64,000 nucleotides of DNA from Giardia intestinalis. Taxonomy: Eukaryota. Position 1 is the stretch's first letter. Each line of letters begins with the position of its first letter. The stretch is taken from assembly GCA_000002435.2 (NCBI GenBank), contig CM018792.1; one strand, given 5' to 3'. Below, in pieces: positions 2,802-64,000 of the stretch. Made by a program: the position numbers and the translations under genes. The notes below the pieces were generated by a model, which worked only from the letters and a program-made list of their open reading frames with translations, did not search any database and had not been told where the DNA came from.

Positions 2802-2939
2802 TAATTTTTGGATTTTATTGTAATTTTGAGATCCCAGCAGGTCAGATCTCTGAGTAGAAACATGGAACTGAATAGTACACAACAAGCATACAGCGCTGTC
2901 CTTTATACCTGTGGAATCATCATCGTCAGAAGGCCGTCT

Positions 2940-9446: not shown

Positions 9447-9468
9447 GTCCCTGATGATATCATCAGGG
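9447..9468. repeat. perfect 22-bp palindrome TCCCTGATGATATCATCAGGGA
   Basis: Read directly; it is self-complementary around a central GATATC. It lies in the 760-bp divergent intergenic region between the VSP (-) and the HCMP (+). Confidence 0.55.
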
Positions 9469-9811
9469 ATCTCTCTTTATTTGTATACCAGGAGTTGCTT
9501 GTATTCATCGGTCGTTTTGTGTAGTATGTGCTCAGACTGAGTGTGTGTCGACCTGCCTCACTTTTTGATCTTCTTTTATGTTGGGTGAAGTGAATCATCA
9601 TCGTCCAAGTAGTATCCGATTTCTTGAATCAAAAAACAGCGAGAATGCCGCTCTACGTGACAGTTCCCATGCTTGACGTTAACTGTACCGGTTGACTACG
9701 CAAGAATCTATGCGAGTCTTATGTTTCCGAGTATTTCTATAACAAAAGTAGTGTGATAGGATTCTCTATTAAATATGGATGCATTAAAAACTTGCTTTCT
9801 CCAGGAGTCTC

Positions 9812-12313
9812 ATGATCGGTTTCGTCTCGCTTCTCCTATGCGGTATTTTCTCAGAATGCACCCAGGATAGCGAGTGTGGCGGCGCCGGGGGTACTTGTGA
9901 TGTCACGATCGGCGGTAAGAAGTACTGCTCCAAGTGCGACGGAGCGCGGGTCCCCGTCAACGGAGTTTGCAGATTGTTGAATGTATCTCGTAGTATATGC
10001 CAAGTTCCATTGAATAGCGCGGGTACTGGCTCTTGTACAGGCTGCATCCGTGACTTCCTCTTCTACAGGGGCGGGTGCTACCGCACGGCATCCCTGATCA
10101 ACGCCATATGCAAGGAGAAGCACATCGTCGAGGAGGGGATGTACTGCGGGGCGTGCGCCATCGAGGGCGACGTCCCGATCGACGGGGTGTGCGTATCAGC
10201 AAGCACAGATAGCTCTGGAAACACGTGCGACAAGGGCGTGTGCACGACATGCGCAAGCGGATACTTCTTCCACTACGGGTCATGCTACAAATTCGGAGGA
10301 TCTCCAGGCAGCACTGTGTGTCCTAAGCCAACTAGCACTACTGGCTCTGTCTGTGATTCTTGCGGGTCGAAGTTCGTCAAGAACCCCAGTGCGAGCTCGT
10401 CTGCCACCTCCTGCCTCGCGTGCTACGGGCTGGACGGGACCCTCTTCTGCGAGCGCTGCCGGATGAACGTGCTCACGAGCGCAGACGTGAAGCCCACTCT
10501 GTGCACACAGTGCAAAATAGGCTACGTGCCCGTGGATGGTCGTTGTGTGTCAACTTACTCTGCCACCTCGGCTCTTGCAGGGTGCTCTACCTATAGCGGT
10601 AATGAGAATACAAAGGGACTTTGCGAAACGTGCTCCTCCGGCTACATGCTCTTCTACGGGAGCTGCTACTCTGTCAACGGCCCCCTCGCCCAGGCCATCT
10701 GCAAGACCGAGAACCAGATCTACCTTGGGGGAAGGGTCTTCTGCAAGAGGTGCGCCCAGACAGACCACTACCCCATCAACGGCTTATGCATTGCTGATAA
10801 GGGATCACATACGTGCGAGGCGGGCATCTGCACAGCATGCGACACCAGCATGACCTCTGTCGACACCTCCAAGGTTTTCCTGTTCTACAACGGCTGCTAT
10901 GATGCAAACTCTGCAATCGGAAAGCTAATATGCCAGGAGGCGTCTAATGGAGCGTGTTCAACTTGCAATACAAACGAGACATCGAATATAATAGCTAATC
11001 CTAATTCTGCAGATGGCCAACCAAAATGTCTTGGATGTTGGGACGAGGCAGCTACTGGGGTGGCCAACTGCGGAGGGTGTGCGGCCGGCACAGACGGCGA
11101 TTCCAAGATCGTCTGTAGCAAGTGCACCGACTCGACGGAGCCCAAAGACAACACGTGCCCTCAGGCCCTCCCGCCCACAACGCCTGAAGGATGCGCCGTC
11201 CAGGGCTGCCAGGCGTGCTCGAAGGACTCCGCTACGACGTGCGACGCCTGCTTCGAGCCTCTCATCATGAAGGAGGACAAGACGAAGTGCTTCGGGAGTT
11301 GCCTGGCGCTGGGCCCGGGCTACTACAACAACTCTGGGATATGCAGCCCATGCATAGAGAACTGTCTCCTTTGTACAGACGGGGCCACGTGCTCCCAGTG
11401 CGCCGAAGGGTACTATCTCGAAGTGTCTGGTGCCGGCTCAACGACAGGAACCTGTAAGGCGTGTGCTACTGGATGCTCGACGTGCGCCAGTGCCGGTGAT
11501 AACCTTTGCTCTACGTGTGCTGTGGGATATTATGCTGCATTTGCTCCACGGCGCGGGGAAACGGGAAAATGCATTCTATGTAATGCCAGTGGGGATGGAT
11601 ATACTGGCGTCGCAAACTGTGCCGTTTGCTATAGTACTACAGGGGAAAGCGGAAATAAAAACGTTGTATGTAATACATGTGATGATGGATACATTAAACA
11701 GCACACAGGTAATACAGTCGTTTGTAACCTTCCGACTCCAGAATGCAATGCCGCAATGTGCTCGGTTTGTGTTGAAAATAACCCAGATCGTTGTGAGCAC
11801 TGCACGACCGGCGCGTACCTCTGCCCGCGGACGGCGACGTGCACGAAGGACTGCGCCAGCTGCGGCGGCTCGATGTACCCCGACGATGACCTCGGGGAGT
11901 GCCAGCCGTGCGACATCGCGAACTGCCGGGTCTGCGCGACGGGGCTCAAGTGCGAGAGCTGCGCGGAGAGCGCCGTCCCCATCTCCCCGGACGTCTACCA
12001 CACGGCGTGCATGGGCTGCAGCGACACCGGGGGCATGGACGGCTGGGTGGGCCTCGCGGGGTGCACGACCTGCGAGCTGACCGACAAGGGCGGCGGGAGC
12101 GTCAACTGCCTCGACCCCGGCTACTACCGGCGGGGCGGGCTCGGCGGGGGAGCAATCGCCGCCATCGTCATCGTCGTCCTCCTCGTCCTGGCCGTCGCCG
12201 GCTTCCTCGTCTGGTGGTTCGTCTTCAGGAGGGGCGGCCGGCCCAAGCGCGGGGCGAAGTACACATCGCTCATGCGGGGCGAGTCCTACGACTACCGCCA
12301 GTCTCTAATATGA
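9812..12313 (+). CDS. high-cysteine membrane protein (HCMP, VSP-like type I membrane protein with a longer cytoplasmic tail)
   Basis: ATG at 9812. Signal peptide MIGFVSLLLCGIFSEC. The ~780-aa ectodomain has repeated modules with CXXC/CXC and GCY motifs (FLFYRGGCY, YFFHYGSCY, YMLFYGSCY, FLFYNGCY). There is a single TM (AIAAIVIVVLLVLAVAGFLVWWFVF) and a 33-aa cytoplasmic tail ending …SYDYRQSLI, not CRGKA. AGTAAAC follows 7 nt after the stop, at 12320-12326. Confidence 0.8.
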   Translation: MIGFVSLLLCGIFSECTQDSECGGAGGTCDVTIGGKKYCSKCDGARVPVNGVCRLLNVSRSICQVPLNSAGTGSCTGCIRDFLFYRGGCYRTASLINAICKEKHIVEEGMYCGACAIEGDVPIDGVCVSASTDSSGNTCDKGVCTTCASGYFFHYGSCYKFGGSPGSTVCPKPTSTTGSVCDSCGSKFVKNPSASSSATSCLACYGLDGTLFCERCRMNVLTSADVKPTLCTQCKIGYVPVDGRCVSTYSATSALAGCSTYSGNENTKGLCETCSSGYMLFYGSCYSVNGPLAQAICKTENQIYLGGRVFCKRCAQTDHYPINGLCIADKGSHTCEAGICTACDTSMTSVDTSKVFLFYNGCYDANSAIGKLICQEASNGACSTCNTNETSNIIANPNSADGQPKCLGCWDEAATGVANCGGCAAGTDGDSKIVCSKCTDSTEPKDNTCPQALPPTTPEGCAVQGCQACSKDSATTCDACFEPLIMKEDKTKCFGSCLALGPGYYNNSGICSPCIENCLLCTDGATCSQCAEGYYLEVSGAGSTTGTCKACATGCSTCASAGDNLCSTCAVGYYAAFAPRRGETGKCILCNASGDGYTGVANCAVCYSTTGESGNKNVVCNTCDDGYIKQHTGNTVVCNLPTPECNAAMCSVCVENNPDRCEHCTTGAYLCPRTATCTKDCASCGGSMYPDDDLGECQPCDIANCRVCATGLKCESCAESAVPISPDVYHTACMGCSDTGGMDGWVGLAGCTTCELTDKGGGSVNCLDPGYYRRGGLGGGAIAAIVIVVLLVLAVAGFLVWWFVFRRGGRPKRGAKYTSLMRGESYDYRQSLI

Positions 12314-13123
12314 TTCCCCAGTAAACGGAGCTATCGCCTGCCGGTGCCTGTCTCTGAACGCGCATATCCCGGAGATGTCGACGGAGCCGAGGAGCCTCCG
12401 CGCCCGCAAGCGCTCCCCCGGAAAGGGCTCGGTGTCCGCCGTCTTCGAGATCGACACGCTGCACTCTGCGGCATCCGACGCGACGCAGGAGAGGCCGTTG
12501 TGGAGCACCACCCGGGAGATCTCGCTGACGTGGACGGACAGCATGGGCCGCAGGATGCACACTCGATGCCTGGCCCTGCTGGCAAAGTCCCTGACCTCGC
12601 AGTTGTAGTACCCCCGGAGCCCGAAGAAGGAGGCCCCGTGGACCCCGGTGATCGCCAGGGTCTCCAGGTCGTCCAGCAGGTGGTGGCCGAGGGCCAGGGC
12701 GTCGTAGCCGCCGGCGGACACAAAGCTCGCCAGTGTTCCGCGGCGGCAGCGAGAGCAGACGCTGCACGCAGACGCCTTCCTGGCCTCCTGCCCCGATGCA
12801 TCCAGGCGGGCGATCTTGGCCGAGACGTCCATCCCAACCACCTGCTGCTCGAACGTCATGGCTCCCTCTGCGGCGTCGTCGATCGATAGCGCACACGGGC
12901 AGAGGCTCCGTATCGTGTCCAGGATGAAGCCGGGTATCTTTGGGTCGAAGGTCACAGGGGTCACTTCCAGCGCCCCCAGGTCTCCTAGGCCGATGGGGTC
13001 AAACAGCCGCTTGATCATAGTAGCTGGAAGGAAGCCCACGCCTCTTCTGAAAGGACCAAAGTCGTCCGGTCTAGCCATCGGGACCAGTGGGTCAAACCGT
13101 TCAGCGTTAGAAGGAAAAGCCAT
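12305..13123 (-). CDS. TtcA/Ncs6(Ctu1)-family tRNA thiolation-like protein; PP-loop ATP-binding motif not recognisable
   Basis: ATG at 13121-13123. Strong similarity to the remembered E. coli TtcA core: CSVCSRCRRGTLASFVSAGGYDALALGHHLDDLETL versus [37 protein letters not shown]. Also FDPKIPGF versus LDQKQPGF, and RPMLSVHVSEI versus RPLAYCREKDI. No SGGKDS motif is found at the expected position, where the sequence reads …DPIGLGDLGALEV…. The gene is very GC-rich and its 3' end overlaps the HCMP stop by 9 bp. Confidence 0.55.
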   Translation of the reverse strand: MAFPSNAERFDPLVPMARPDDFGPFRRGVGFLPATMIKRLFDPIGLGDLGALEVTPVTFDPKIPGFILDTIRSLCPCALSIDDAAEGAMTFEQQVVGMDVSAKIARLDASGQEARKASACSVCSRCRRGTLASFVSAGGYDALALGHHLLDDLETLAITGVHGASFFGLRGYYNCEVRDFASRARHRVCILRPMLSVHVSEISRVVLHNGLSCVASDAAECSVSISKTADTEPFPGERLRARRLLGSVDISGICAFRDRHRQAIAPFTGESY

Positions 13124-16500: not shown

Positions 16501-17881
16501 TTACAAGGAAGCATCCATCTGCGATTCCAGTAAATCCTGCACCAACCTTTGCGAAAAATGACTCTGCGTTAACGGGGTCTATCGTACTAGTAATGGCACC
16601 TATTGCCTTCTCAAACGCAGGGAGCAAGCGACCTGTTACAATGGCGTAATGTGTGAAGACGGACATGCAGATCAATGAAAGAGACTTTTGAACAACCTCT
16701 GGGTTGGCTCCCATTTTATAGAACAGTTTTAGCTGTTTCAAGAAGATGACGAAGTAGTCGAACAGTTGCTCGATAACCTGAAATGTGCCAGCGCCTGATG
16801 CTGCCTCTAAGATTCTCCTTGAAAGATGAAATGCAACAGTCTCATATATTAGAAGCATGCGGTTCACGATATCCCTATCTATGGGCAGTTCACGGAACGA
16901 CGATTCAATAAGCGACAAAAGGGATGCATCAATCACCAAATCCGATGATAAGATTCCTCCCAACACGTTTAGCGCACTCGCAGACATATCCGGAGCAAAT
17001 AACAGCTGCAGTAGTCTAATAACCAACATGCACCCTGCTGACATTTCCGTATCTTTATTCGAATGGTACACTGCCGGGCCTCCCGAGGCAGCATAGACAA
17101 GGTTTGCGGGGAGAGAAAGCTGCCCATCAGATAGAGATGAGTCATGTGTACGGAGATTATATAGAACAACCTTGGTCACTGCTGTGGTACCTTCTGTAAG
17201 AAGCATGGAGAGGATGGAAGAAATTATCTGTATGCTGCAGTAGCCTGGTGTTCGCGAATTTGTTGAATTGTCAAGATTTTGTCTTGTGGACTCATCAACA
17301 TCCGTATCAGCATCAGAGTCTAACGTATCGGTAGCTACTTTTATATTCTCCTTGATCAGCTCAACTTCATATCGCACGATGATACTCAAAATATCGTGCA
17401 CCAGAGACGCCACTTTGCGACGCCCATCTCCCAGCATTAGAGCCAGAAAGCCAGGCAGTTTGCTTTGAGGTGGAAAGGTGCCACCATCTGTTAAATTAGA
17501 AGCAAACTGCCTCAGCATCTCCAGGTAGAGAACTGTGATAAAGGTCGGTATGTTAGGAGCGCTAAGAAACTCCAGTGTAAAGGACTCTATGCGTGGAAGG
17601 ATAGCAAGAGACGATGCAACTGAGATGTCAGAGAGCATACTTTTAGCCAGAATAAATGGCGGCACAAGAGTTTCCATGGGAGTGAGATTCTTCCAGTCGG
17701 CGATAAAGGTTAGAATAAATGCGAGTACGTGTTCTCTTTTAGGTTCCGTGTCCTTAGAAATGCGGCTCCGCACAGCTGAAAATGCATTATTGCAAAAGAT
17801 TGTGAGAGGCTCTGCAAAGCTAGGATACGTGAGGAGGAATGGATTGGAGAAGGCTCCCGAAACTGAGATGCCCTCGTTCAT
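13586..17881 (-). CDS. large HEAT/ARM-like repeat protein, tentatively RRP12-like (pre-ribosome export factor)
   Basis: Track ORF 13586..17941 starts with GTG; the first ATG is at 17879-17881. The ~1430-aa protein is predicted all alpha-helical. Its C-terminus (…GDVQTANKADPYAYLPLLTGKHISKQ… followed by a Lys/Arg-rich tail) resembles the conserved C-terminal DPYAY(I/W)PL motif plus basic tail that I recall for RRP12 proteins. This rests on memory and is not verified. Confidence 0.35.
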   Translation of the reverse strand: MNEGISVSGAFSNPFLLTYPSFAEPLTIFCNNAFSAVRSRISKDTEPKREHVLAFILTFIADWKNLTPMETLVPPFILAKSMLSDISVASSLAILPRIESFTLEFLSAPNIPTFITVLYLEMLRQFASNLTDGGTFPPQSKLPGFLALMLGDGRRKVASLVHDILSIIVRYEVELIKENIKVATDTLDSDADTDVDESTRQNLDNSTNSRTPGYCSIQIISSILSMLLTEGTTAVTKVVLYNLRTHDSSLSDGQLSLPANLVYAASGGPAVYHSNKDTEMSAGCMLVIRLLQLLFAPDMSASALNVLGGILSSDLVIDASLLSLIESSFRELPIDRDIVNRMLLIYETVAFHLSRRILEAASGAGTFQVIEQLFDYFVIFLKQLKLFYKMGANPEVVQKSLSLICMSVFTHYAIVTGRLLPAFEKAIGAITSTIDPVNAESFFAKVGAGFTGIADGCFLVKQNEQQECEEVIAGLKGLFTALVAGARHTENHTCILIITSFIKHMDLQLAFKAFNCGLVSDDGTSKLMDLVQTPSSATDLWLLSYYSKCKSASLSFIYTHLFEAILNQSAFKKLQAGTRSILLDQVWAIVSEVTRNPVVDDLLGYSQDTSIALAEAPTKTSVDIFCSILIDNLFGSTEAEQRALHACGSAIGNLLRFFSTLRANVTKLVESIIKTSSTSQGAGPTSELSSTGDTCTLLMELIAKPEPFQLSAAVIKNLRLFEASLSFVGGFLVPKLLSPLLDRMLAADSPPNNPYVTLLPLAVSLAKKPLISTACANVIKRIIDGTGPQASLFDVFNGILSGCITATNFSPLGPQTVPVFLELDSKLSTIHTISAQKLHYKILRFLVNASSKDNPELSQAIISSIESAGAETFRGGALQRHRFGLYADIVRSSEVFNLEPSHILSEFARDIYLCLSDNNMRVRHMASEMIKAATVKACRQCCNNESLGSLKLDIYEAVQKITDCLQPPQNSSVDVWANYAYLLQIIMIGMTEVIKKLLVEDLNILLEKGVNISDFNCTHPLFITIATQLLADIRTNLFLEKRKVASTDAETGEETTEFSYRYTLSLPTHSAKRLLNFFSAFISAAGPSELLSIAEEIPRVLLRLVIGSLTSPYRSVVKNILFQLGLAMGYSYSKDLYEEAFNLIIKDMMEYIVANSETPIHNLDPEILVAIRDAAAEACVSARRMVSAVLSKLRHKASDQMIGRFTLPNYLDVALSIPEDMHGRIRSYGDDDADFADIYKHIIDGTEEVIDLEEKQPCPDSSNDADDPFKNNKKFGKSLNSAMAMLLDETVERDSLRPEHIQKLTQIKENDAILNRTLSEIKKINQRKQYSSGRLKVVHTGHEFSSKRAGGDVQTANKADPYAYLPLLTGKHISKQDRTRLKAGMTLVTQKRTRDERIAKKQMLSHAEKRAMMKHGHIPPNLKNRRHNRKK

Positions 17882-18160
17882 AAAGTTATAATTAATTGCA
17901 AAGCAGAATAAATGATGCCTCAAGCTGGGCCACAGAGCCACCCATTCATCTACACCATAGAAGACGAGTTCTCTGTCGGTCGCCTAATATCTCTGAACTA
18001 ATTAAACATAGGTTTACCTCTAGAGTCTTTCGTCACCTTATTGAAAATCTGTTCTTGTTCTTCCACTCTATCCTTAATGGCCAGGATTTCACGGATGAAT
18101 TAGTTCTTAGTGGCGAGCATTTACTTCAGGAAACAAAAAATTGAGAGGGGTCCGCCGTCA

Positions 18161-20323
18161 ATGTCAACATCGTCCCGTCAAAGGTCTCCACGAGACCAAC
18201 TGCCGCCTCAAATGACCGCTCCTCGAGCTAAATATAATAGAAGGCGGCGTGTAGTACACCAGAATGAAGATACAGGGCTACATATCCAATCAAACAGAAA
18301 TCCTAGCAAAACCTCACGGAAACCAAGTGTACCAGCCAGTGCAAAAGTATACACCCTCGTCCCACCTCTTGTTTCACCCCTAACGCTGATTTCCCCAGAT
18401 TTGACAAGGATCGAGCAAATGGAAGCAAGAAGACTAAGCCCTCGCACACTTTCCAGCTACTCGTTAACAAATCATCACTTTCTATTGCCACATAACAATG
18501 ACATAGCCACCAATATAATAAGGCTGTGGAATTACCTTAGACTCCCCTTTCCGGAACAGCGATATGCCATGCAGTCTTTCATAGCCAATGAATCTCTACT
18601 TTTTCCGTATCTCAAGAGGCTAACTAAGTTTTCCACTCTTCTGCGTGCTTATGATCATTGCAGCAAGGTCCGCATAGGATTGCTAGGCCGCTTCCGTGCA
18701 AACCTATATGGTTCTACTTGTCGAGATAGCATCATAGTAGACCTACTGGAGCTACGGGAGCTCACTCTTTTCATAGTCTCTTTTGATAATGAGGCAAGCA
18801 CGATATTGGGCCGACCAATCTCTTTAGCAAAGGTGCTAGGTAGGGATTGCCCCAGTTCGGAAGCTTTCTTCTTTGATGAATGCTTATTCACAGAAGAAAC
18901 CGTCGCTACCATGATGCTAGCAACCCAGTTTATCAGAACAATGAGCCTTATTCAGCTCCAAACCCTAATCAACATGTTCTTTGACAGGTGCATCAACTGG
19001 TACACTCCTGCGGACTCTCCCAGCGATCAGCTCATTGACTATGAAAAGAAGGCTCGTAAAATTGTCTCTCTCTGCTTTCTGCTGGGTTTAGTAGCAGATG
19101 CACAGTTTGAGGGAAACATCCTCCCAGCTCTTTTCATGACTCACCTGATTTCTATCAAGGGAAGGGATCTAATCGCGTTCAGGAATGAGCTGCTCTCACA
19201 ATGCAGTAGTATGGACCTTGTATCCTTGCCTACAAAGGAAGTCAATCAGCCATATGTTAATATTCCTTTGCAACCTCTCATTGGTTTAAAAAATTGCAAA
19301 ACGAGCCTTTCTGAACCAGAACCCACGCCCCATCACCCTATTGTCAACAACGATGTGGCAGAGACCATTTTGCTTACACCCAGCGAGGCTTTTCACGCAA
19401 TATTAACCGATAGGTTCCTCACAGAGATTGATGATGAGTTTTTGTTATTCTGCAACGACTTAGGGTATAGCCTTCCACTCATTCCTGTGGAGCCTAAAGA
19501 AACCTTGGTTGAAATCTATCGAGTTATCAATCCAAACCAATTTCCAAACACCTCCACAAAGAGCCCAGATGCTACGCTCATCGACATGTCTGTTCCGTCG
19601 CCTTTTGGGGTGGAGAGTATCTGGGTAAACACGCCTAACTATACAGAGTTCTCGATTGGCAATGCCTACGATCGCAGCATAGAAGGCACAACAGGGCTCA
19701 ATCCCATGCAGTTACTTGGAGAGGAGGAGTATGACTTGCTAGGGGTTTTGAACTGGCCCAGGGTACACATCACACCGTTTCTAGTGGAAGGAGCAAGCAA
19801 ACTAATGAAGAGGCTCATCGCTAACAGCATTGAACGCAGATCTAAAAGTTTACCCGCTAGATCTCCAAAAGAAAATAAACCCCAAGCAAAGAAAAAGAAA
19901 GCCCCTCATAGCTGCAAAAAAAATCTGAGTCAGCACAGTGAATCACCTCCGCCACCACCATCAATACACACTACCGCTGTGCTGCCTGGCTCTTCAAAAT
20001 CCGTCCCAACAAGACCGCGTTTTACCAGAAGGGCTGTCGTAGGTAGTACACGACAAGATCCGCCTAGTATGCATACACAAAAAAGTACTAAGTCAATCCT
20101 TACCCTAAAAGATTTGGAAAATGAGTTGACCAATCGGATTGGAGATTTAAAACTTACAAAAGAAGTTGAAAAGCATAACAAAGAACTAAGCACTCACGAA
20201 CAATCCACGGAAGATAACAAGATGATTATTAGTGCAGATCTGACTGCAATCTTCTTGGGACACAGCAGTCCAACAGATGAATCCCCTCTGTCTTCCAAAG
20301 AGCAGCTTAGAGCATCCCCATAA
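18161..20323 (+). CDS. hypothetical protein
   Basis: Track ORF 18110 starts with GTG; the first ATG is at 18161 (MSTSSRQRSP…). ~720 aa, with a basic Ser/Pro-rich C-terminal third. No domain recognised. Divergent from the RRP12-like gene. Confidence 0.4.
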   Translation: MSTSSRQRSPRDQLPPQMTAPRAKYNRRRRVVHQNEDTGLHIQSNRNPSKTSRKPSVPASAKVYTLVPPLVSPLTLISPDLTRIEQMEARRLSPRTLSSYSLTNHHFLLPHNNDIATNIIRLWNYLRLPFPEQRYAMQSFIANESLLFPYLKRLTKFSTLLRAYDHCSKVRIGLLGRFRANLYGSTCRDSIIVDLLELRELTLFIVSFDNEASTILGRPISLAKVLGRDCPSSEAFFFDECLFTEETVATMMLATQFIRTMSLIQLQTLINMFFDRCINWYTPADSPSDQLIDYEKKARKIVSLCFLLGLVADAQFEGNILPALFMTHLISIKGRDLIAFRNELLSQCSSMDLVSLPTKEVNQPYVNIPLQPLIGLKNCKTSLSEPEPTPHHPIVNNDVAETILLTPSEAFHAILTDRFLTEIDDEFLLFCNDLGYSLPLIPVEPKETLVEIYRVINPNQFPNTSTKSPDATLIDMSVPSPFGVESIWVNTPNYTEFSIGNAYDRSIEGTTGLNPMQLLGEEEYDLLGVLNWPRVHITPFLVEGASKLMKRLIANSIERRSKSLPARSPKENKPQAKKKKAPHSCKKNLSQHSESPPPPPSIHTTAVLPGSSKSVPTRPRFTRRAVVGSTRQDPPSMHTQKSTKSILTLKDLENELTNRIGDLKLTKEVEKHNKELSTHEQSTEDNKMIISADLTAIFLGHSSPTDESPLSSKEQLRASP

Positions 20324-20325
20324 AA

Positions 20326-20390
20326 CTGTTGACTGTTGGCAGTTGACAATTGACAATTGACAATTGACAATTAACAAGTAACAATTGACA
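20326..20390. repeat. heptamer tandem array (TTGACAA)n, ~9 units, 4 perfect
   Basis: Read directly: ctgttgactgttggcag ttgacaa ttgacaa ttgacaa ttgacaa ttaacaa gtaacaa ttgaca. It sits between the stop of the upstream gene (20323) and the ATG of the GPI-EtNP transferase gene (20400). Confidence 0.7.
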
Positions 20391-20399
20391 GAAAAAGGC

Positions 20400-22061
20400 A
20401 TGGTGGTGCTGGTCATAGGATTCTTTCTCTCCATATTGATGTGCACGCGCATTGACGTGTTCTTGCTGGATGGCATGCGAGAAGACTTTTTTCTCGACGG
20501 GGAAGTCATCAATAAAACATATTTCCCTCGTCTTACTGTCTCTGCCTTTCCATCTGTAAAGAAAACAGTGCTCACCGAAACACCAACGTACACAACCAAC
20601 TGTCTTCATGCCATGTATACAGGTAGGGTCACTCATCCGCTTTGCGTCCTGCTGGCACTGGCTCCATCAATGTATACCATCACTGGAGGACCAAGAGAAA
20701 AACCTCGCGTTCTCAAGCTTCTGCTGCAGAGGGGGTATAGTTTGAGTGTCAGTGGGGATGACACATTAGCCAAGATGTTCCCTAGCTACTTCAGTCAATC
20801 GCAGACAGCATACTCCTTCAGCATAGGTGACTATGACACAGTAGATAACATAGTACTCCAGAGCCTGCAAGATCTTTGGGCAAGTGGTGCAGCTGTAACC
20901 AATCAGTTCTCGGTATACCACTTTCTCGGAGCAGACCATGTTGCACACAGCGAAGGCCTACTGTCCGCTACACTACGTGAGAGGTATAACAGGTATGATA
21001 ATCTGATAGACACTCACCTGAATTTTCTTCACAATATGTGGACCAAAGGCGATCTTGATAGCTATGTTGTCATCATTCTCTCGGACCACGGGATGACAGA
21101 CAAGGGTACCCACGGCGGCTTCAGTGCAGCAGAGACTCACACTCCCTTTCTGCTATTCACGTCCTCAGAATCGCTTAGAGAAGGCCTTGAAACGCGAGTC
21201 GGTCAACTGATTCCACAGCGACACATCCTACTTCACGTTCTCTCGAAGTTATTTCTCGCAGAGACAGGAGCCGAAATTGAGATAGAAGCGACAGATGGAG
21301 CGCCTTCCAGTGCTGTTTCGTCCATAGACGTCTGTATTATCATCGCTTACACTATCTTATTAGCGATACTTTCGACAATAATTATCGCCCGTAAGCGTCC
21401 TATAAGCTCAGCAATTCTAATGTGTCAGTTTCTGTGCGCTGTAGCTGCACGGTTTGCGCACAACGAAACGGTGCCTTTGGTAATTAGCCTTGCAATGGAA
21501 CTTATTTGGAAGACTAGGTCTGATAGCAATGAAATCAACGTAAGATACGGTGGAAAGAATCCTGCGAGAAGACATAGCATGTATCGGGCTCTCCTAATTG
21601 TATCTTATGGTGCCTGGATAGCGTCTCTTGCATATATTACAAGGAGCGTGTACTCAGTAACACCAGCAGCCTTGATGTTGGTGATCCAAACCTTCAATGC
21701 CCGAGCAGAGCTGCGGCATATATTGCTGCGCCTGCTACTCAACGGTATGGGGCACACAGAACTCTTTTCATATAGACTTCCATCCATATATCTGTCAAAT
21801 AGACCCAAAAACTCGGCCAATCCTTGGAGTTGTGCAGCTTATATTTTCTTAGCCGATGGACTGCCTACAATGATCAGCGGAAGCATATATGACTTCACCA
21901 GTCTTGCTACTCTGATATTCTCCTCTCTGCTATTTCGATGGCACCCCCTCTACAACTCCATCTGCGTTTCGAGGCTAATAATGGGGATCGTGACGGCTAT
22001 TCTGAGTTTAAGCGGTGTGATTATGAGGAGAGTAGGGTCAACCTTGGGGTTCTTGAGATAG
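20400..22061 (+). CDS. GPI ethanolamine-phosphate transferase (PIG-O/PIG-G/Gpi13-Gpi7 type, alkaline-phosphatase-like) with a C-terminal polytopic membrane domain
   Basis: Track start 20385 is TTG; the first ATG is at 20400. N-terminal TM, then the catalytic core: VFLLDGMREDFF matches the lliDalRxDF metal-site motif; YHFLGADHVAH matches HFLGVDHCGH; ILSDHGMTDKGTHGG matches GDHGMTxxGDHGG. Multiple hydrophobic helices follow. Confidence 0.65.
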   Translation: MVVLVIGFFLSILMCTRIDVFLLDGMREDFFLDGEVINKTYFPRLTVSAFPSVKKTVLTETPTYTTNCLHAMYTGRVTHPLCVLLALAPSMYTITGGPREKPRVLKLLLQRGYSLSVSGDDTLAKMFPSYFSQSQTAYSFSIGDYDTVDNIVLQSLQDLWASGAAVTNQFSVYHFLGADHVAHSEGLLSATLRERYNRYDNLIDTHLNFLHNMWTKGDLDSYVVIILSDHGMTDKGTHGGFSAAETHTPFLLFTSSESLREGLETRVGQLIPQRHILLHVLSKLFLAETGAEIEIEATDGAPSSAVSSIDVCIIIAYTILLAILSTIIIARKRPISSAILMCQFLCAVAARFAHNETVPLVISLAMELIWKTRSDSNEINVRYGGKNPARRHSMYRALLIVSYGAWIASLAYITRSVYSVTPAALMLVIQTFNARAELRHILLRLLLNGMGHTELFSYRLPSIYLSNRPKNSANPWSCAAYIFLADGLPTMISGSIYDFTSLATLIFSSLLFRWHPLYNSICVSRLIMGIVTAILSLSGVIMRRVGSTLGFLR

Positions 22062-22062
22062 C

Positions 22063-22602
22063 TCAGCCGCTTAGGGAAGCAACGAGATGTCTTGCGTGTC
22101 TTGCCGCCGTGGCTGATGCATGCACACGGTCCAGACCTGAAAGGCACTCTGTTTCTTTATCAGAGACGGAGCAGTCCTGTACAGTTAGTTGTAAGTTGGC
22201 GATGGAGTAATTAGGTTGCTGAAAATCTGAATATGAACTACTTGATCTGGGCCTCACTCTATGTCTAGTGGCCGAGAAATTGTCAGTGTCATCAAGAGCA
22301 AGATTGCGGAGCACCAATGTCCGCGTGCCCTCCTTCTTCACTGCCTTCCAGCACATGCAATTATTGTATATAATGCTAACCTGATCAGTTGCAGCACTAC
22401 TCTCCTGCGGCCTATAAAGAATGTAAGTTGACCCCTCGTGGCTGGCCTCAGAGGCAGAGGAGTTCTTCAAGCATGTACCTGCTGGGGAAGTAAGTAGTGA
22501 TGACTTAGGGGAACTAGTTAACCGCTTGGGGTGTTTCTTTATTAATTGTAGCCTCTGAGCAACGATATCTGCGTCCTCGCGGAGCCAAGATCGGGCGTTC
22601 AT
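22063..22602 (-). CDS. hypothetical protein
   Basis: 179-aa ORF with an ATG start at 22600-22602. Its ATG lies only 16 nt after the DHHC gene stop. Without it there would be a 557-bp gap between convergent genes, which would be unusual in this very compact locus. No motif recognised. Confidence 0.3.
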   Translation of the reverse strand: MNARSWLREDADIVAQRLQLIKKHPKRLTSSPKSSLLTSPAGTCLKNSSASEASHEGSTYILYRPQESSAATDQVSIIYNNCMCWKAVKKEGTRTLVLRNLALDDTDNFSATRHRVRPRSSSSYSDFQQPNYSIANLQLTVQDCSVSDKETECLSGLDRVHASATAARHARHLVASLSG

Positions 22603-22618
22603 TTTTTAATTTATCTCT

Positions 22619-23560
22619 TCAATTCATCTCTTCACCCGATAAATCTATGGCTCTATTTTTCAGGGCGCTAAATATGACGCTTTCATCTGCTGTCCCGGAA
22701 GCGACTGCATTGTATGCCTCAATTAGTCGAACGTATTTTGGAGACATCTCATAGTCGTAGCCACTTCGTGTGGGCCGTATTCGAGCGGGCAGAAGGAGAG
22801 CTGCTATCATACGCTCCCCAAAAAGCTCGGAGAGATTAGTACGGAGGCCGCTAGAGTAAGGGTACGGAAAGGGGATCCCAAGGCGCTTGCACCTCTCCTT
22901 CACCCAGTGATAATCACACTCTTCAGCCCCAATCTCATTATGCAAGATTGCAGGAAGCTGAGAAACAATAATGACCATGCATGCTAAAATGTTCAAGCAA
23001 TCAATTCCTGTGCCAAGAACAAATATCCCTATGCGTATCCTTTTATCAGTCTCTGGAAGAAAGGAGTTCGTGATGAAGCTTATGATGTTTATAAGGCAGC
23101 TTGTCAGTGAGCCGAGGACACCAAAGAGTAAGAAGCGGAGGAAGTAGCCATGATTACGAAGCCCAACACAGTTTCCAATCCAGGGGCAATGGTGATCATA
23201 CTTTAGCACACATCTACCGCAGATGCTGCAGTGATGAGTCCGCATGGGACGAGCATTGTGGCATTTTCCGCAAGACGTAAATGCCTCGTCTGGTATTGTA
23301 AATCCCGGAGGAGTGAAGATTGCTAGGCAGTAACTGGAAAGGTAGACCACAGATATGTACCCCATCAATGTGTAAACAAACACCTGAGCAACCCAAGATC
23401 TATAGGAGATGGCTGCAATGCACATTGGAACCAAAATGCAAACTGCAGACAAACACAGACAGGTTCCTATGACAAATCCGTGCATGGCACAGACACCAGC
23501 CCGTCGGAGACAGCGAAATCCCAGGCAGTTGAGGCACCTATTGGGGCCCTCCTTGCGCAT
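22619..23560 (-). CDS. DHHC-type protein S-palmitoyltransferase
   Basis: ATG at 23558-23560. Canonical zf-DHHC cysteine-rich domain CGKCHNARPMRTHHCSICGRCVLKYDHHCPWIGNCVGLRNHGYFLRFL, flanked by four TM helices. Confidence 0.85.
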   Translation of the reverse strand: MRKEGPNRCLNCLGFRCLRRAGVCAMHGFVIGTCLCLSAVCILVPMCIAAISYRSWVAQVFVYTLMGYISVVYLSSYCLAIFTPPGFTIPDEAFTSCGKCHNARPMRTHHCSICGRCVLKYDHHCPWIGNCVGLRNHGYFLRFLLFGVLGSLTSCLINIISFITNSFLPETDKRIRIGIFVLGTGIDCLNILACMVIIVSQLPAILHNEIGAEECDYHWVKERCKRLGIPFPYPYSSGLRTNLSELFGERMIAALLLPARIRPTRSGYDYEMSPKYVRLIEAYNAVASGTADESVIFSALKNRAIDLSGEEMN

Positions 23561-23582
23561 GCTCCAATGAAATTAATTTCTT

Positions 23583-24605
23583 ATGGACTTCTCTGCGAAT
23601 CCTTGTGAAAGAGGCTCTACTGAGGCTGCGAACGAATGGAATCATGTCTACACACAGCACAAGGGATCGTTGTATCGAGATAGACACTGGCTATGGGCTG
23701 TTTTCCCGGAGCTTTTCCCTCTCCCTCCACACTACAAGGGAGACTTGGACACTGAAACATTTGCATGCCACTGTGGAAAGGCGACAGCCATTAGCAGTGC
23801 ATTGGTTAACGAAGTGAATATGCATGGCCTAGCTTTGAGAGCCTGTTGCTGTCCAGTCTGCGAATATAGAGTTGTGTACCAATCAACATACGTATACGCT
23901 CCCGGAAGACCTACACGTGGAGAAGAAGTTCCGTTCCCTCCTCGAACAGGACACGTCTGGGTCCTCGACATAGGGTGTGGAACCGGGAGTCTAGCGTTTC
24001 CACTCCTCGAAAAGAACTCACAGGTTCGTCTACTCTCACTAGATTACTCAGAAGAGGCCATTAAAGTCCTCAAACTGAGAGAGCGTTACAACGAAGAGGT
24101 GATCGTTGGAGAGATCTGTGACATCACAAGTCTTCAGAACTTGTCCGCCGCATGTGCACAATTGGCTACGCGATTCACTCCTTCCCCGGTCTTCTACTAT
24201 GCAACGATGGTCTTTGTTTTGAGTGCGCTGAAGGACAGCAACACCGTCAAAACAGCCATCTCTAACGTCTTATCGGTGTTAACGGACAACGGCGTGTTGC
24301 TAATCTATGATTATGCGGAAGGAGACTACCGTGAGGGAAAGTTCTCTGCAAGAGAGCAGAGCTCCCTTGACCGCTCTCCTATGGACCGAAAGAACCACTA
24401 CCTAGGAACTACATATCTGCGCGGCGAAGGCACACGGGCAACTTTCTTTTATTTGGAAGCACTCAAGGAACTTTGCTCAGAGCTTGGGGTGGTTCATGAA
24501 GCCTTGGTTCGAACGAAGGAAGAGTACAACAGAAAAACACAGGAACGATGGGTAAAGAAATATCTGTTAATTAAGGTTCGCAAATCCTCGCATGAACAGA
24601 AATAG
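23583..24605 (+). CDS. METTL2/6/8-family SAM-dependent methyltransferase (tRNA N3-methylcytidine methyltransferase type)
   Basis: WNHVYTQHKGSLYRDRHWLWAVFPEL matches the family N-terminal motif W..FY…FKDRHW…EFxEL. SAM motif I VLDIGCGTGSLAFPLLEK. FVLSAL, LLIYDY and TRATFF align to METTL6 FVLSAV, VLFRDY and TRSYFF. Confidence 0.75.
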   Translation: MDFSANPCERGSTEAANEWNHVYTQHKGSLYRDRHWLWAVFPELFPLPPHYKGDLDTETFACHCGKATAISSALVNEVNMHGLALRACCCPVCEYRVVYQSTYVYAPGRPTRGEEVPFPPRTGHVWVLDIGCGTGSLAFPLLEKNSQVRLLSLDYSEEAIKVLKLRERYNEEVIVGEICDITSLQNLSAACAQLATRFTPSPVFYYATMVFVLSALKDSNTVKTAISNVLSVLTDNGVLLIYDYAEGDYREGKFSAREQSSLDRSPMDRKNHYLGTTYLRGEGTRATFFYLEALKELCSELGVVHEALVRTKEEYNRKTQERWVKKYLLIKVRKSSHEQK

Positions 24606-58734: not shown

Positions 58735-59757
58735 CTACTGAAAGTGGTGACCGTGTCGATATAGTATTTGGGTAACAGCTTCCTTCACGTCTGAAAAGAC
58801 CATCATTGGCATATTTTCTGCACCCTTTTTGATATCCTTCAGGTCTCCTTCGTGTGCTTGCCCAGTGAGGACAAGAACAGACACCCACCCATCCATTTTC
58901 CTCCTGTTTGCTCCGGTAACATCTGACGTAAGGCTGTCTCCAATCATATAAATGGTTCCTGAGTTGAGCCGCTTGTGAGCTTCATTAAAGATTGGGCTAT
59001 GCGGTTTGCCCAAATAGTGAATTTCTAGATCATTCACGTTCCTGATCTGCTTGTAGACCTCGCAAGTCGAAACCAGAAGGCTTCCAAGAGTAAGTCGTGG
59101 AATAACGTAGCTTCCTCCGTATGTTATGTCTGGGTTGCCCACATAAATGGGAGGCAGCAGAGAGCCATTGGAGACATCACCCGAAACAGACCCATTTCGA
59201 AGAAGCGCTTCCAACACCACTTGCATGTCGAGATACCAAGTATTGCTATCGTTACAGAAGAAAACCTCATCCACGTGAGTGGGGAAGTCATCAGCAAAGG
59301 TGCTCACAGGGAAGTCTGCGTCGGTCACTTGGCTCTCCTTGAGCCACTGGGCATATTGACCTTCGATGTCACAGTACCCCTGAATAATCCCAGTGTTAAA
59401 GCGCCTAACAACTTGCATTGTAAAAACACAGTTCCTATGCCCGGACTTCTTTATAATTGGGAGGGACAGTTTGGCGGCTCCGACGATCAGGACAACGGTG
59501 TCCTCGGAGCGACTAGAGAGGTAGTCCAGTGCCATGCTTGCAGTATTCACGACCTGCGATGGCGCAACCTTGTACCCGAGGATATCTTCCACTTCGCGGA
59601 CAAGCAGTTCTGGAAGAACGCCGCCATTGGAAAGAAGGACGTATGGGATGCCATTCTTATCCAGTGTGTCCAGTGCCTCTCTCGCGCCGGGTATGGGATG
59701 CCTGTCTCGACGTAGAACACCGTCCATGTCTAACGCAAATGCGACGTCTGTGGGCAT
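58735..59757 (-). CDS. HAD-superfamily hydrolase, subfamily IIA-like
   Basis: Track start 59772 is TTG; the first ATG is at 59755-59757 (MPTDVAFALDMDGVL…). HAD motif I with the nucleophile Asp (DMDGVL). The YVLLSNGG block matches the IIA/CECR5-type motif II. C-terminal …YMIGDSLTSDV… is motif IV-like (GDxxxxD). Confidence 0.6.
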   Translation of the reverse strand: MPTDVAFALDMDGVLRRDRHPIPGAREALDTLDKNGIPYVLLSNGGVLPELLVREVEDILGYKVAPSQVVNTASMALDYLSSRSEDTVVLIVGAAKLSLPIIKKSGHRNCVFTMQVVRRFNTGIIQGYCDIEGQYAQWLKESQVTDADFPVSTFADDFPTHVDEVFFCNDSNTWYLDMQVVLEALLRNGSVSGDVSNGSLLPPIYVGNPDITYGGSYVIPRLTLGSLLVSTCEVYKQIRNVNDLEIHYLGKPHSPIFNEAHKRLNSGTIYMIGDSLTSDVTGANRRKMDGWVSVLVLTGQAHEGDLKDIKKGAENMPMMVFSDVKEAVTQILYRHGHHFQ

Positions 59758-59772
59758 CACAAGCAGAGCCAA

Positions 59773-61836
59773 CTTAAAATAAATGCCCTTTGGAGAAATC
59801 CTGACGTTTCCAAGGACGTCCGAACCGTTCTAGAAGAGCGATTTACTCCACCCGCTGGTTACTTCCAGTGCTCTTCCGGGCTGTGCTGCCGGCGGAACCC
59901 AGCAGCCCAGAGTAAACCCCTCATTTTCCTCACACGCTCCGGGACACCAGACTGCTCCATAGGCCGCCGGCCACGCTGGAGTGCCCCGAGGCGGCCCAGG
60001 AGAGTGCGTGTGCTGATAGCTTGTCCGCCAGACCCTCCTAGCAGCAGAGCGCCGTCGCGGCAGGAGAGCATGCCCCTTGCATCGGTCGGTCGGTTGCTGA
60101 GACCCCTGGTGCTCTGTCTGGAGCGGAGACTGCCCTGAGGGCCCTGTACGCTGCTCCCCTGCACCGACTGGCACAGCAGGGGGGCTGGATGCCGAGGGGC
60201 ACCTCCAGAGTCTCGGGTCTCTACAGGACAGGACACACGGCAGGGACATCTGCATGCGGGCCAGGAGTCCTGCTCGGCCCGTCCCTCGGCTGACGCCTTG
60301 GCCCCTCGGGAGCCCTGTCAGCACCACCGAAGGCAAGGACTCTCCAGGAGCGTTGGACTGGGCCCGCATGGAGTGGATGGCCCCACAGCCACTGCACGGG
60401 CCTCTCGGGCAGGGGGTCTCTCTGCCACTGCAATCTGTAGCAGCGTAAGGGTCGCCCCGTGTGCTGCCCTCTTGCCGTGGCGGGGCTTCAGGCATGCCAT
60501 CGGGACTGTCCGACGGTCACCGGTTGGGCCCTGTGTGACAGCAACAGACGAGAAGACTGTCCCACAACGACATGCCCTCGCTGGAGGACTGTCAGCAGGG
60601 CGGGGGAAGCTGTGGCCCACTGGGGGAGTGAACGATCTCAGTGGGTCCAGGCGCACTGCACTGCGGGCCCCGTCGGGCCGGTCTCTGACGGGCGCCGCGA
60701 TCACTCTGCCCGGTCTGGCAGATCACGAGGGGTCTGAGGCCGGTCTGTTGGGAGGAGAACCAGGGCCCTCGCTGATGGTCGAGCAGAGTCACCACAGGGG
60801 GGCATGAGCTCGAGTGAATGAGGGCCCTCTTAGCAGCGCGCATGTCAACCGAGCGAGGAGAACGACATGGCAGACACCAAAGGAGCCATGACCTCCTGAG
60901 CCCTCTGAGGTTTGTACTAGGCTCGCTGGGCTTATCAATCTCAGGCTCTGGTTCGCTCGAGTGAGCACTGCAAGGGTGAGAAGGGAACCTAAATGGAGAT
61001 AAGCCTCCACAAGTGGCGGACAGAGTATCTGTGATCGACACTTGCCACTGATGCTGTCTGGCAACTTGGCTTTGCAGAGGCCCATTGAGTAGGCACTCCA
61101 GGCAGTAACAACGCAATCAGCTAGCCACTGTCTTAGACTGCTCTTGGAGACCTGCAGCGAGGAAAGGCGAAGTCCCTAGAGCTTGTTGATGCAGTGCCAG
61201 AGCTTATGCTCTTCTTCGATGATCTGCTGAGGCTATCTCAAAGGTTCCAAGACTGTGGAGAGGGAAGCTTGATAGTAGGAATTCATAATCACTGCTGCTC
61301 AGGACCCCGTAGGCCCTCCTCTCCAGTCATGGCGAGCTGCTGGGCCCTGAGAACGTCGGAGGGCCTTGCCGATGTGCATGGGCGGTGGGCAAGAGGATCC
61401 CCAACGTATACAGTTCACAGGAGCTGTTTTACTACAGGCTGTCAGGCTTCTTCCCCGACATCACGAGATTTTTGAAGCAGAGGCCCGGCAGGAAGAGGGT
61501 GGTGATAAGATAGCCAGGTTTCCAGCAGTGCAACAGAGAAGACCCTTGCTCTATCAGCGACGACTCGCTTCTGTTTCCGGACACAATCGAGCATTGACTG
61601 AAGTTACTCACGGGATCCTTGGGGTGTGCTCGTAGGCAAGGGTCCTAGCAGCACAACGCTGAAGGTGACTGGTAGATGGAGTGAAGAAGTCCGAAGCCCT
61701 AGTGCCCACCCTGCACTGGTGCCCAGCCGGCTACAACCCCACAATTGAAGTCATCTCTCGTTGGGCACTTGCCACACAAGGCAAGAAGGGCAGAGGGAAC
61801 CCAGGGCGTACAATCTGTGTTTGGTGCGCTATCTGG
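59773..61836. other. ~2.1-kb GC-rich segment without a convincing protein-coding frame
   Basis: Between the HAD gene start and the next ankyrin gene. Only short overlapping ORFs (≤221 aa) on both strands. Their translations are Pro/Gly/Arg/Ser-rich and low-complexity (e.g. MPEAPPRQEGSTRGDPYAATDCSGRETPCPRG…), as expected for non-coding high-GC DNA. Every other intergenic spacer in the window is <800 bp. Confidence 0.4.
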
Positions 61837-61908
61837 ATGATCTGTAAACAATACCGTGAATCGCAAGTTTACCAGTACACGCGTTTCCTTTGTGACCATG
61901 GAATAAAA

Positions 61909-62580
61909 ATGTCGTCTACAGATGATTCGGATCACTGCTCTCAGGAGTGCGACCGTACCTTGCCTCCTACGCCCGAGAATGACACAGACGATGAGTATAT
62001 GAGTGAAGACATTCCCACCGAGTCTTCAGAGATGGATGGTGAAGATGGCATGGACGAGGACGGCGTCACTGAGCTCATGAAGGCGGCCAGACGAAACGAC
62101 GTAGATGCAGTGAAGCGCTATATTCCTCAGCAGGCGGGAATGGTGGCGAAGTTTTTCAAGGCGGGAGGCGTAAATATATATGAAGGGACAGCCCTGATGG
62201 TCGCCGCGGTGCTTGGACACGCCGAGGTGGTGAAGCTGCTGATGAAGCACGAGAGTGGAATGATGAGCAGCGATAAGCACACCGCCCTTATGTGGGCGGC
62301 AGTCAACGGTCATACTGAGGTTGTGAGGCTACTCGTGGAGGTTGAGGGCGGCATGAAGAGGAGCGAGGGCTGGACTGCTCTCGTCGGTGCAGCATCCTTT
62401 GGCCATTTGGAGTGTGTTAAATTACTGCTAGAGAAGGAGAAGGACGTAGGCGGCGAGGTTGCCCTCTACATGGCTAGTACATGGGGTAACTCCGAGGTGG
62501 TGTCTTTTCTCAAAAGTAAGGGTATTGTAGATCCATACTTACAAATGTTGTCCAGAAAGGCCGTGAGTGAACGCGCTTAA
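61909..62580 (+). CDS. small ankyrin-repeat protein
   Basis: Track ORF 61681 starts with GTG. In-frame ATGs occur at 61837 and 61909; the latter has an A-rich context (gaataaaaATG). The acidic N-terminus is followed by 4-5 ankyrin repeats (TELMKAARRNDVDAVKRYI, TALMVAAVLGHAEVVKLLM, TALMWAAVNGHTEVVRLLV, TALVGAASFGHLECVKLLL). Confidence 0.6.
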   Translation: MSSTDDSDHCSQECDRTLPPTPENDTDDEYMSEDIPTESSEMDGEDGMDEDGVTELMKAARRNDVDAVKRYIPQQAGMVAKFFKAGGVNIYEGTALMVAAVLGHAEVVKLLMKHESGMMSSDKHTALMWAAVNGHTEVVRLLVEVEGGMKRSEGWTALVGAASFGHLECVKLLLEKEKDVGGEVALYMASTWGNSEVVSFLKSKGIVDPYLQMLSRKAVSERA

Positions 62581-62885
62581 CTGTTGATCGAGTTTGATGA
62601 TAGATCGGATTCCCCTCCAGCTGTGCAGCAAACAGACACCTCAATGAAGTGGTGGCTGTCAGTGGGGCACACAGCCACCCATTTCCTCAGAGGCCAGGGG
62701 AGCAGGCCTTCTCACCCTCGGTCAGCACTGCAATACTAGGGGTGGGTGAAACGGTCGCACAGGTGGTCTTCTCATCTCTTATGCAGAAGCCCTTCGTAAG
62801 CATTGGACCACTACAGATCTGTAGACACAAACCTCTGTGGAAACGGATCGTTTCCAAAACGGTAGATTACCAAAATAATACCAGG

Positions 62886-64000
62886 ATGGACACTTCCTCG
62901 TCTGAGCCTGCAACTGTGGCTCTCAGGGTCCCACTGTTCACCCCTAGGGAGCTTCATGAGCGGTTAGGTGATGGGCTTAATGAAAACACCATGGGGACAG
63001 TCTACTCTCTCAAGGGCTATCCAAACCTCGCTGTGCAGGAGATCCTCCTCGATGGCCTGGACAAGGGGGATCTGGACACCATCAGACTAGAGCTGGCCAC
63101 CCTTCTCGACCTCTCCCATCCGAGGGTCCTCAAGCACCACCAAGTAGTCGAGGACGAGGGCCTCATCTACGTCGTCACGGACCGGCACGACAGGACCCTC
63201 GAGCGCCTCCTCACCGAGCACAAACGAAGGAAGATCCCCGTGTCTGCCGGCGTGATCCTCTCCGTCATGAAACAGCTCGCCGCCGCCCTCGCCTATCTTC
63301 ATGGTCTCAGCGGGGTAGGTGCTAATGGGCTTGTCCACTGCGACCTCAGGCCTGCCAACGTCCTCATCAGCGCAGACGGGGAGCGCTTCGTCATCGCCGA
63401 CTTCGGCCTCTGCAGAAACACATTGTGGAGTGAGAGCACCATTGCAGGCATGGCAGTATACATGGCCCCCGAGATGCTCCTCCACAACGAGCCCAGCCCC
63501 GCCTCCGATGTGTGGAGCCTCGGGGTCATCCTCTACGAGATGGCCACTCTGAGGAGACCGGACTTCCTGAAAGGTAAAGACCCAAAAGACGTCTTCGTCG
63601 ACAGGTGGAGGCCGGACCTGAGCAGTGTCACCGATGGCTTCATAAAGAGTGTTCTGGAGAGGATATTCGTGCTGGAGCCAGAGGAAAGACTGACAGCCAG
63701 GGAGCTGCACGAGACGCTCACTGCGGCTGACATCCCAGTTGGTGAGCTGGGGGCTCAGTACGCGATGCTGAAGTACGAATGCGGATCCCTGAAGGCCGCT
63801 CTGAACAGTGCTAACGCTAGGATTGCTACTCTTGAGGCAGCCCTCGACGCCAGGTCTACTGAGATGGTGTCTCAGTCAACCGAGACTGCCTCTCTCAAGG
63901 ACGCACTTGAAGATCAGTGCAAGGAGCATCTGGCCATGATTAAGGCACTAGAGAATAGATTCACAGAATTTAGTGGTGGGATGAACACGAGTAGCTCCCA
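62886..64000 (+). CDS. NEK-family protein kinase-like protein (3' partial, runs off the window)
   Basis: Open frame from ATG 62886 to the window end; the track does not list it because it has no stop. Kinase subdomains: HCDLRPANVL (HRD-like catalytic loop), ADFGL (DFG), YMAPE (APE), SDVWSLGVILYEM. Coiled-coil tail. The glycine loop is not canonical and the usual VAIK lysine position reads AVQEI. The antisense ORF 63087..63710 is an artefact of the high GC3. Confidence 0.65.
   Translation, partial: MDTSSSEPATVALRVPLFTPRELHERLGDGLNENTMGTVYSLKGYPNLAVQEILLDGLDKGDLDTIRLELATLLDLSHPRVLKHHQVVEDEGLIYVVTDRHDRTLERLLTEHKRRKIPVSAGVILSVMKQLAAALAYLHGLSGVGANGLVHCDLRPANVLISADGERFVIADFGLCRNTLWSESTIAGMAVYMAPEMLLHNEPSPASDVWSLGVILYEMATLRRPDFLKGKDPKDVFVDRWRPDLSSVTDGFIKSVLERIFVLEPEERLTARELHETLTAADIPVGELGAQYAMLKYECGSLKAALNSANARIATLEAALDARSTEMVSQSTETASLKDALEDQCKEHLAMIKALENRFTEFSGGMNTSSS

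Follow-up and report, generated by a model that had tools for sequence, protein, structure and literature searches.

A GC-rich gap in a Giardia intestinalis locus holds a truncated, non-coding copy of a repeat found upstream of a vsp gene

Results

Organization of the gap

We analysed a 64-kb stretch of assemblage-A Giardia intestinalis from contig CM018792.1 (GenBank assembly GCA_000002435.2), hereafter the window, in which two divergent genes are separated by a gap of ~2.14 kb. The gap extends from the start of a HAD-family hydrolase gene (59757, minus strand) to the start of a small ankyrin-repeat gene (61909, plus strand) and is the longest gene-free gap in the window, as a first-pass annotation made from the letters alone had observed. 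Measured between maximal open reading frames (ORFs) of at least 150 amino acids (aa), no other pair of neighbouring genes is more than 741 bp apart (range -31 to 741 bp), making this gap 2.9 times the next largest. From left to right, the gap consists of the unique 5′ flank and promoter region of the hydrolase gene (59758-59889, minus), a GC-rich non-coding repeat (59890-60899, plus) present as a truncated copy of ~1.0 of ~1.4 kb, and a unique non-coding spacer (60900-61908, without assigned strand). The gap is probably best explained as an orphaned, truncated repeat from upstream of a vsp gene, together with the unique spacer, both non-coding, decaying and located at the edge of a variable gene cluster.

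The GC content reaches 64.8% at 59784-60971, compared with 48.6% for the window. The ORFs of this block overlap on both strands and are all rich in Pro, Gly, Arg and Ser, a description already given for the first ~1.2 kb and confirmed here. The GC content of its codon phases differs by only 0.02-0.14, so codon periodicity is absent. Elsewhere in the window, GC exceeds 62% only in coding stretches, most clearly at 11.85-12.9 kb, where one codon position has a GC of 0.82-1.00. The right half of the gap has an ordinary composition and no convincing frame; the same had been said, correctly, of the ~0.8 kb that follow the GC-rich part.

A second GC-rich stretch (window 11694-13059, 65.7% GC) is coding on both sides, comprising the 3′ end of a cysteine-rich membrane protein gene (9812-12313, plus) and a 272-aa gene (12305-13123, minus). 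GC is again 0.82-1.00 at one codon position, and long spurious ORFs overlap on both strands. For the window as a whole, the observed/expected ratio of CpG is 0.76; it is lower in the repeat (0.62) and the spacer (0.50) and higher in GC-rich coding DNA (0.95-1.10).

The GC-rich block is a repeat present at several loci

Window 59890-60899 corresponds to positions 17018-17958 of contig L020 of isolate DH at 91.5% identity, and window 59890-60716 matches contig L007, which carries the PRP8 and HSP70 neighbourhood, at 92%. The homology to the PRP8-locus copy ends abruptly at window 60899/60900. A third copy, recovered by an exhaustive HMMER search, lies in the WB ORF GL50803_95432 (92% identical to window 60120-59902) and runs on into a flank matching none of the examined loci. 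The copies at the HAD locus, at the PRP8 locus and in GL50803_95432 have differing flanks, placing the repeat at at least three loci in assemblage-A Giardia; blastn finds no further copies inside the window. Copy number, proposed in the first-pass annotation as a check, proved to be the right test. The left ends of the three copies lie within ~12 bp of each other, and the right end varies, the copy measuring ~1.0 kb at the HAD locus and ~1.4 kb or more at PRP8. The plus strand was chosen for the repeat because the complete paralogue, in that orientation, precedes a vsp gene.

The repeat accounts for the breaking of short-read assemblies of many isolates exactly at this position. In 96 blocks of the searched collection, short-read contigs carry the HAD hydrolase protein without change, and one such contig is 100% identical to the window across 11.2 kb. 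Every Logan contig bearing the HAD gene breaks off at window 59919, 59924 or 59975. Logan contigs from the PRP8 locus, drawn from at least nine sequencing runs, end after an identical 30 nt, CGGCGGAACCCAGCAGCCCAGAGTAAACCC, with which the shared sequence opens at window 59890. Logan uses k = 31, and all 31-mers of its contigs are distinct (PMC12424806). A stop 30 nt inside the repeat is the outcome expected from a branch in such a graph.

An indel of ~63 bp (60691-60755), containing three sub-repeats with CCGGTCT, lies inside the repeat. The insert is present in the window and absent from both DH copies and from contigs L008 and L005, with its first ~26 nt found at the end of contig L007. This suggests slippage or exchange between copies. 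Contig L005 (ena:ERZ27317378:k141_104587) is a chimeric MEGAHIT contig, in which positions 1-470 join the PRP8-locus copy of the repeat to the HAD locus. The 400 bp of additional GC-rich sequence that L005 seemed to show at the HAD locus were rejected as a product of this chimera with the PRP8 copy.

The complete copy forms the upstream region of a vsp gene

On DH contig L020 (AHGT01000012.1), the PRP8 stop codon at 16930 is followed by 87 bp of unique sequence, the GC-rich block from 17018 and a vsp gene at 18415. The block (17018-18414, GC 0.63-0.74) runs up to CTAATGTT at 18415, the vsp start. The gene (18415-19329) encodes a signal peptide (MFQLIPLFVASTIAVTC), CXXC motifs and a CRGKA tail and matches Pfam VSP at E = 1e-25; a second vsp gene lies 46 bp beyond it. 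The full copy of ~1.4 kb occupies the entire interval between PRP8 and the first vsp gene and is therefore the extended upstream non-coding region of that gene. According to Adam et al. 2010 (PMC2996952), such an extended region is typical of the first vsp gene in an array, and vsp genes sharing near-identical upstream non-coding regions are described there, citing Yang & Adam 1995. Given the match to L020 17018-17958 and its abrupt stop, the window holds the distal 1.0 kb of the ~1.4-kb block. This makes the block a shortened copy of the DNA upstream of a vsp gene, a link to vsp loci that was absent from the first-pass annotation.

The HAD locus of DH also contains the 3′ half of a vsp gene with a CRGKA tail (contig L006 4064-4558), ~4.95 kb to the right of the repeat end. 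Its DNA is 83-93% identical to the 3′ half of the PRP8-locus vsp gene and ~69% identical to the window’s own vsp genes. This vsp half and the repeat are collinear, with order and orientation preserved, and the two are separated in DH by the spacer and the 223-aa ankyrin, NEK-type kinase and Ank/zinc-finger genes.

After PRP8, the gene order in assemblage A is repeat, vsp, vsp and primase (L020 16931-22027), and that in assemblage E is a GC-rich block, an ankyrin gene, a dead retroelement and other genes (L019 16925-26500). Only ~70 bp after the PRP8 stop codon can be aligned between the two.

Within the spacer, a 150-nt block (61534-61686, plus) has distant similarity to window 9329-9477 (minus), with an nhmmer score of 20.2 bits, E = 3e-6 and ~62% identity, compared with -2.7 bits for the best decoy. 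The matching stretch lies 259-407 bp upstream of the window’s own vsp array, and its orientation to the downstream gene is equal to that of the spacer block. The block carries a conserved TGTGCT...AGCACA hairpin; covariation support for an RNA structure in it is nil, with terms of ~0.

Coding and RNA tests

The segment is non-coding, and it bears no sign of coding, structured RNA or constraint. Long ORFs, of 221, 169 and 174 aa, do exist in it. Among 10 ORFs of the window and 8 of the full copy, no meaningful Pfam match appears at E ≤ 10. Protein matches to the 221-aa ORF are confined to a small number of ORFs, all from Giardia, in which the frame is shifted. One of these, DHA2_151946, has 58% protein identity over 63% of the query with DNA that is ~92% identical; the frame is therefore not kept. 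XP_001705187.1 (GL50803_95432, WB) and DHA2_151946 (L006 10001-10444) are spurious ORFs inside copies of the repeat. In the short ORFs of the spacer, 65-78% of the nucleotide differences from DH alter the amino acid, a neutral proportion, and some of these ORFs have stop codons in DH.

The plus-strand frames of the block contain no CXXC motif, compared with seven in a real vsp gene, and neither tblastn nor nhmmer detects vsp similarity in the block or the spacer; a decayed vsp gene in either was rejected on these grounds. The spacer likewise has no similarity to vsp genes or to the missing part of the block. A pseudogene of a neighbouring family was rejected, tblastn queries from 150 ORFs giving no match in the region.

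The suggestion of a non-coding RNA locus is not borne out. The whole window has no Rfam match at the gathering score, and at E ≤ 10 the interval 59500-62200 yields only three chance-level matches (E 2.4-7.2). The ARAGORN search for transfer RNA (tRNA) and transfer-messenger RNA genes was negative, and the ribosomal RNA (rRNA) models for SSU, LSU and 5.8S match neither the window copy nor the extended copy. Both halves of the gap were folded on both strands as four 1-kb pieces, giving z-scores of -0.74, -0.95, +0.54 and +0.25 relative to dinucleotide shuffles; all four lie within one standard deviation, with no folding stability above that of shuffled sequence. A structured non-coding RNA was rejected on the combined grounds of no Rfam or tRNA match, no excess folding and no covariation in the 150-nt block, the only conserved one.

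No telomere-repeat or telomerase-template-like motif is present in the region, which also contains no tandem or internal repeats of note. Plasmid and phage collections gave no match. Exact 24-33-mers were absent from JGI metagenome contigs and GTDB genome contigs, which argues against bacterial contamination.

Divergence and decay of the repeat

Window 59890-61908 was compared with L006 8427-10384 of isolate DH. The HAD gene and an 826-aa ankyrin gene differ between the isolates by 0.6-0.8%, and the 223-aa ankyrin gene by 1.3%. The repeat (from 59890) differs by 8.3%, with 84 substitutions distributed over the codon phases as 30/26/28, and the spacer (60901-61908) by 6.4%, with 64 substitutions distributed as 25/20/19, giving 148 substitutions without codon-phase bias. 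This non-coding divergence of 6.4-8.3% compares with 1.5-1.8% at the third codon positions of the three flanking genes. Interval 59890-60900 contains 12 indels, of which 11 are 1-2 bp long; between orthologues, these would shift any reading frame. The spacer has no indel despite its 64 substitutions, whereas the repeat combines 84 substitutions with 12 indels. The absence of periodicity, the even codon phases and the frame-shifting indels uphold the earlier judgement that this is non-coding high-GC DNA and not a real gene.

In a five-copy alignment, the singleton changes comprise 46 from GC to AT and 21 from AT to GC. At 68% GC, these counts correspond to equal per-site rates and an equilibrium of ~50% GC, near the window mean. 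The GC richness of the repeat is inherited, not maintained, and is relaxing toward ~50% GC. Upkeep of GC by biased gene conversion was rejected in view of the equal per-site rates in the two directions. Six copies compared pairwise are 91-95% identical throughout, the window and its DH orthologue being 91.1% identical, and the splits common to copies in the five-copy alignment are mutually incompatible. Such a pattern is compatible with occasional exchange between the copies, with rapid change private to each, or with a mixture of the two.

Genes flanking the gap

The left neighbour (58735-59757, minus; ATG at 59757) matches Pfam Hydrolase_6 / Hydrolase_like and is 99.4% identical to its counterpart in DH, whose orthologous contig is 98.7% identical to the window over the left 10.9 kb. 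An AT-rich initiator-like sequence, ATTTATTTTAAG, lies ~20 nt upstream of the hydrolase ATG. The flank at 59758-59889 has no substitution in 132 bp among the window, DH, L005 and L008, and it is absent from the PRP8-locus copy.

The right neighbour (61909-62580, plus) is annotated in DH as a 223-aa protein with Ank_2 and is 98.7% identical to the DH gene. Two alternative starts, 61837 and 61909, had been put forward. The true start is 61909, with the initiator-like AATAAAAATG located directly at this position, and not 61837, the upstream extension of the ORF being broken in DH by a stop codon plus a 1-bp insertion at 61908. Beyond it, a NEK-type kinase gene (62660-64000, running past the end of the window) is 9.9% different from its DH counterpart, with codon phases of 34/56/43 (a weak bias) and three indels; neighbouring genes differ by 0.6-1.3%. 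This gene may be fast-evolving, a pseudogene, or exchanged with a paralogue.

Discussion

Origin of the gap

We infer that the simplest reading of the locus is the split of a duplicated unit. A duplicated unit consisting of the upstream block and its vsp gene would once have stood at the HAD locus. The unit would have been split, with the loss of ~0.85 kb from its middle, by the insertion or rearrangement of a ~5-kb block that begins with the spacer (60900-61908) as its left end and carries the 223-aa ankyrin, NEK and Ank/zinc-finger genes. Neither half would then have a present function beyond spacing two divergent promoters.

Several observations weigh against this account. Left ends as close together as those of the three copies are more usual for an element with a fixed terminus, a retroelement 3′ end for instance, than for independent duplication breakpoints. 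The vsp 3′ half is seen in DH only, its expected place at ~65.8-66.3 kb falling past the end of the window. The region upstream of the window’s own vsp array (9071-9811) is not GC-rich and does not contain the block, which is therefore no general vsp feature. Orthologous copies are no closer than paralogous ones, which is unexpected under a simple duplication history. The block may also retain some function.

A retroelement origin still has a claim as a minority view, given that the three copies have their left end in common. The block would then be the 5′-truncated, non-coding 3′ part of a minus-strand retroelement of the type lacking long terminal repeats (non-LTR), GilD/GilM/GilT-like or uncatalogued, and its association with vsp genes would be secondary. 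A variable opposite end in the three copies agrees with this, as do the remnants of reverse transcriptase (RT) between four of the seven head-to-head vsp pairs (Xu et al. 2020, PMC7000408). It also draws on assemblage E, in which the two GC-rich, gene-free blocks on either side of the PRP8 cluster are dead copies of a zinc-finger element. On the P15 contig (L019, ACVC01000200.1), these copies (1927-3721 and 19900-24250) border the TPH-HSP70-PRP8 cluster and are degenerate and frameshifted, with C2H2 zinc fingers, 65-71% identity and an RT-like stretch recognised by eye; inverted terminal repeats of 189 bp (19936-20123 and 24221-24048) are present in one of them. A GC-rich gap in Giardia can therefore turn out to be a dead retroelement. 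A short piece related to the P15 element occurs at the start of assemblage-A contig L009 (2-162). However, no frame of the window copy or of the full 1.4-kb copy has an RT, endonuclease or zinc-finger signal, and neither blastn, tblastn nor nhmmer matches either to the assemblage-E element. Poly(A) and target-site duplications are lacking at 59889/59890 and at 60899/60900, and the full copy terminates exactly at the vsp start codon. The degenerate GilD-type long interspersed nuclear element put forward in the first-pass annotation is thus unconfirmed, and a retroelement origin is unlikely. It is also rather improbable that the block is a discrete uncatalogued element with a defined terminus that travels with vsp genes and promotes their duplication, rearrangement or silencing. 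If it were, its fast turnover, four to six times the third-position divergence, would come from locus-specific mutation or ectopic conversion and not from plain neutrality.

A function for the block or the spacer as a long non-coding RNA, or as a cis-regulatory or insulator element (for example in vsp silencing or in separating the divergent promoters), would suit the position of the complete copy, which takes up the whole vsp upstream region where control elements are expected. The spacer, with 64 substitutions yet no indel relative to DH and a 150-nt block in common with another vsp upstream region, points the same way. We regard such a function as very unlikely, however, with divergence well above that of third codon positions, a base composition relaxing to the genome mean, no excess folding, covariation or Rfam family, and no detectable counterpart in assemblage E. 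The relic of GC-rich sequence envisaged earlier does hold in so far as the block is a repeated GC-rich relic, but an rDNA-like character is unsupported. High GC and multiple copies would fit a ribosomal DNA (rDNA) spacer or subtelomeric DNA; the lack of rRNA model matches in the window and extended copies, the lack of telomere-related motifs in the region and the ordinary internal genes seen as neighbours throughout make such a source highly improbable. Least credible is a highly diverged or frameshifted protein gene or pseudogene, such as a decayed vsp gene, another of the initial suggestions. Its long ORFs, with hypothetical proteins annotated in DH (DHA2_151946) and formerly in WB (GL50803_95432), are set against missing periodicity, substitutions even across the codon phases, frame-shifting indels between orthologues, the drop from 92% DNA to 58% ‘protein’ identity over 63% of the ORF, and the lack of CXXC motifs, Pfam matches or tblastn matches from any neighbouring gene family.

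The truncated vsp-upstream repeat with its adjoining spacer is a real but ordinary relic. It provides a clean negative, in that an eye-catching GC-rich gap in a compact genome is not an RNA gene, a recognisable retroelement or a broken gene. It also provides a worked example of how vsp-associated non-coding DNA is duplicated and fragmented, with pieces remaining at the edges of variable clusters. As a rare sample of apparently unconstrained Giardia DNA, its 6-8% divergence between sub-assemblages may help to calibrate neutral rates.

Comparison with known systems

The dead non-LTR retrotransposons of Giardia (GilD / ‘Genie 2’), reportedly described by Arkhipova and Morrison in 2001, resemble the window block in being GC-rich, gene-free, multi-copy and degenerate, with one common end and the other variable. 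The block differs from them in that remnants of RT, endonuclease or zinc fingers are missing, as are inverted terminal repeats, poly(A) and a target-site duplication. A likeness to vsp pseudogenes is found in the DH vsp 3′ half with its CRGKA tail, probably part of the same disrupted unit, whereas the gap itself has no CXXC motifs, Pfam VSP match or tblastn match.

The extended upstream regions of vsp genes, as presented in the portion of Adam et al. 2010 (PMC2996952) considered here, agree with the complete copy, which forms the whole non-coding interval before the first vsp gene of a two-gene array, ends at a PyAatgTT start and consists of sequence common to loci until an abrupt divergence. 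The window copy differs in being truncated to ~1.0 kb and followed by the unrelated spacer and an ankyrin gene, with no vsp gene; its ~68% GC and fast decay are not described in that portion of the article. Xu et al. 2020 (PMC7000408) report short segmental duplications in the WB genome and variable, gene-poor surroundings of vsp genes. With these the window locus has in common low-copy duplicated DNA beside vsp, NEK and ankyrin family genes, a gene-poor character, raised sequence variation and a location where conserved gene order breaks. It differs from them in keeping only the non-coding part, and its copies are 91-95% alike, not near-identical.

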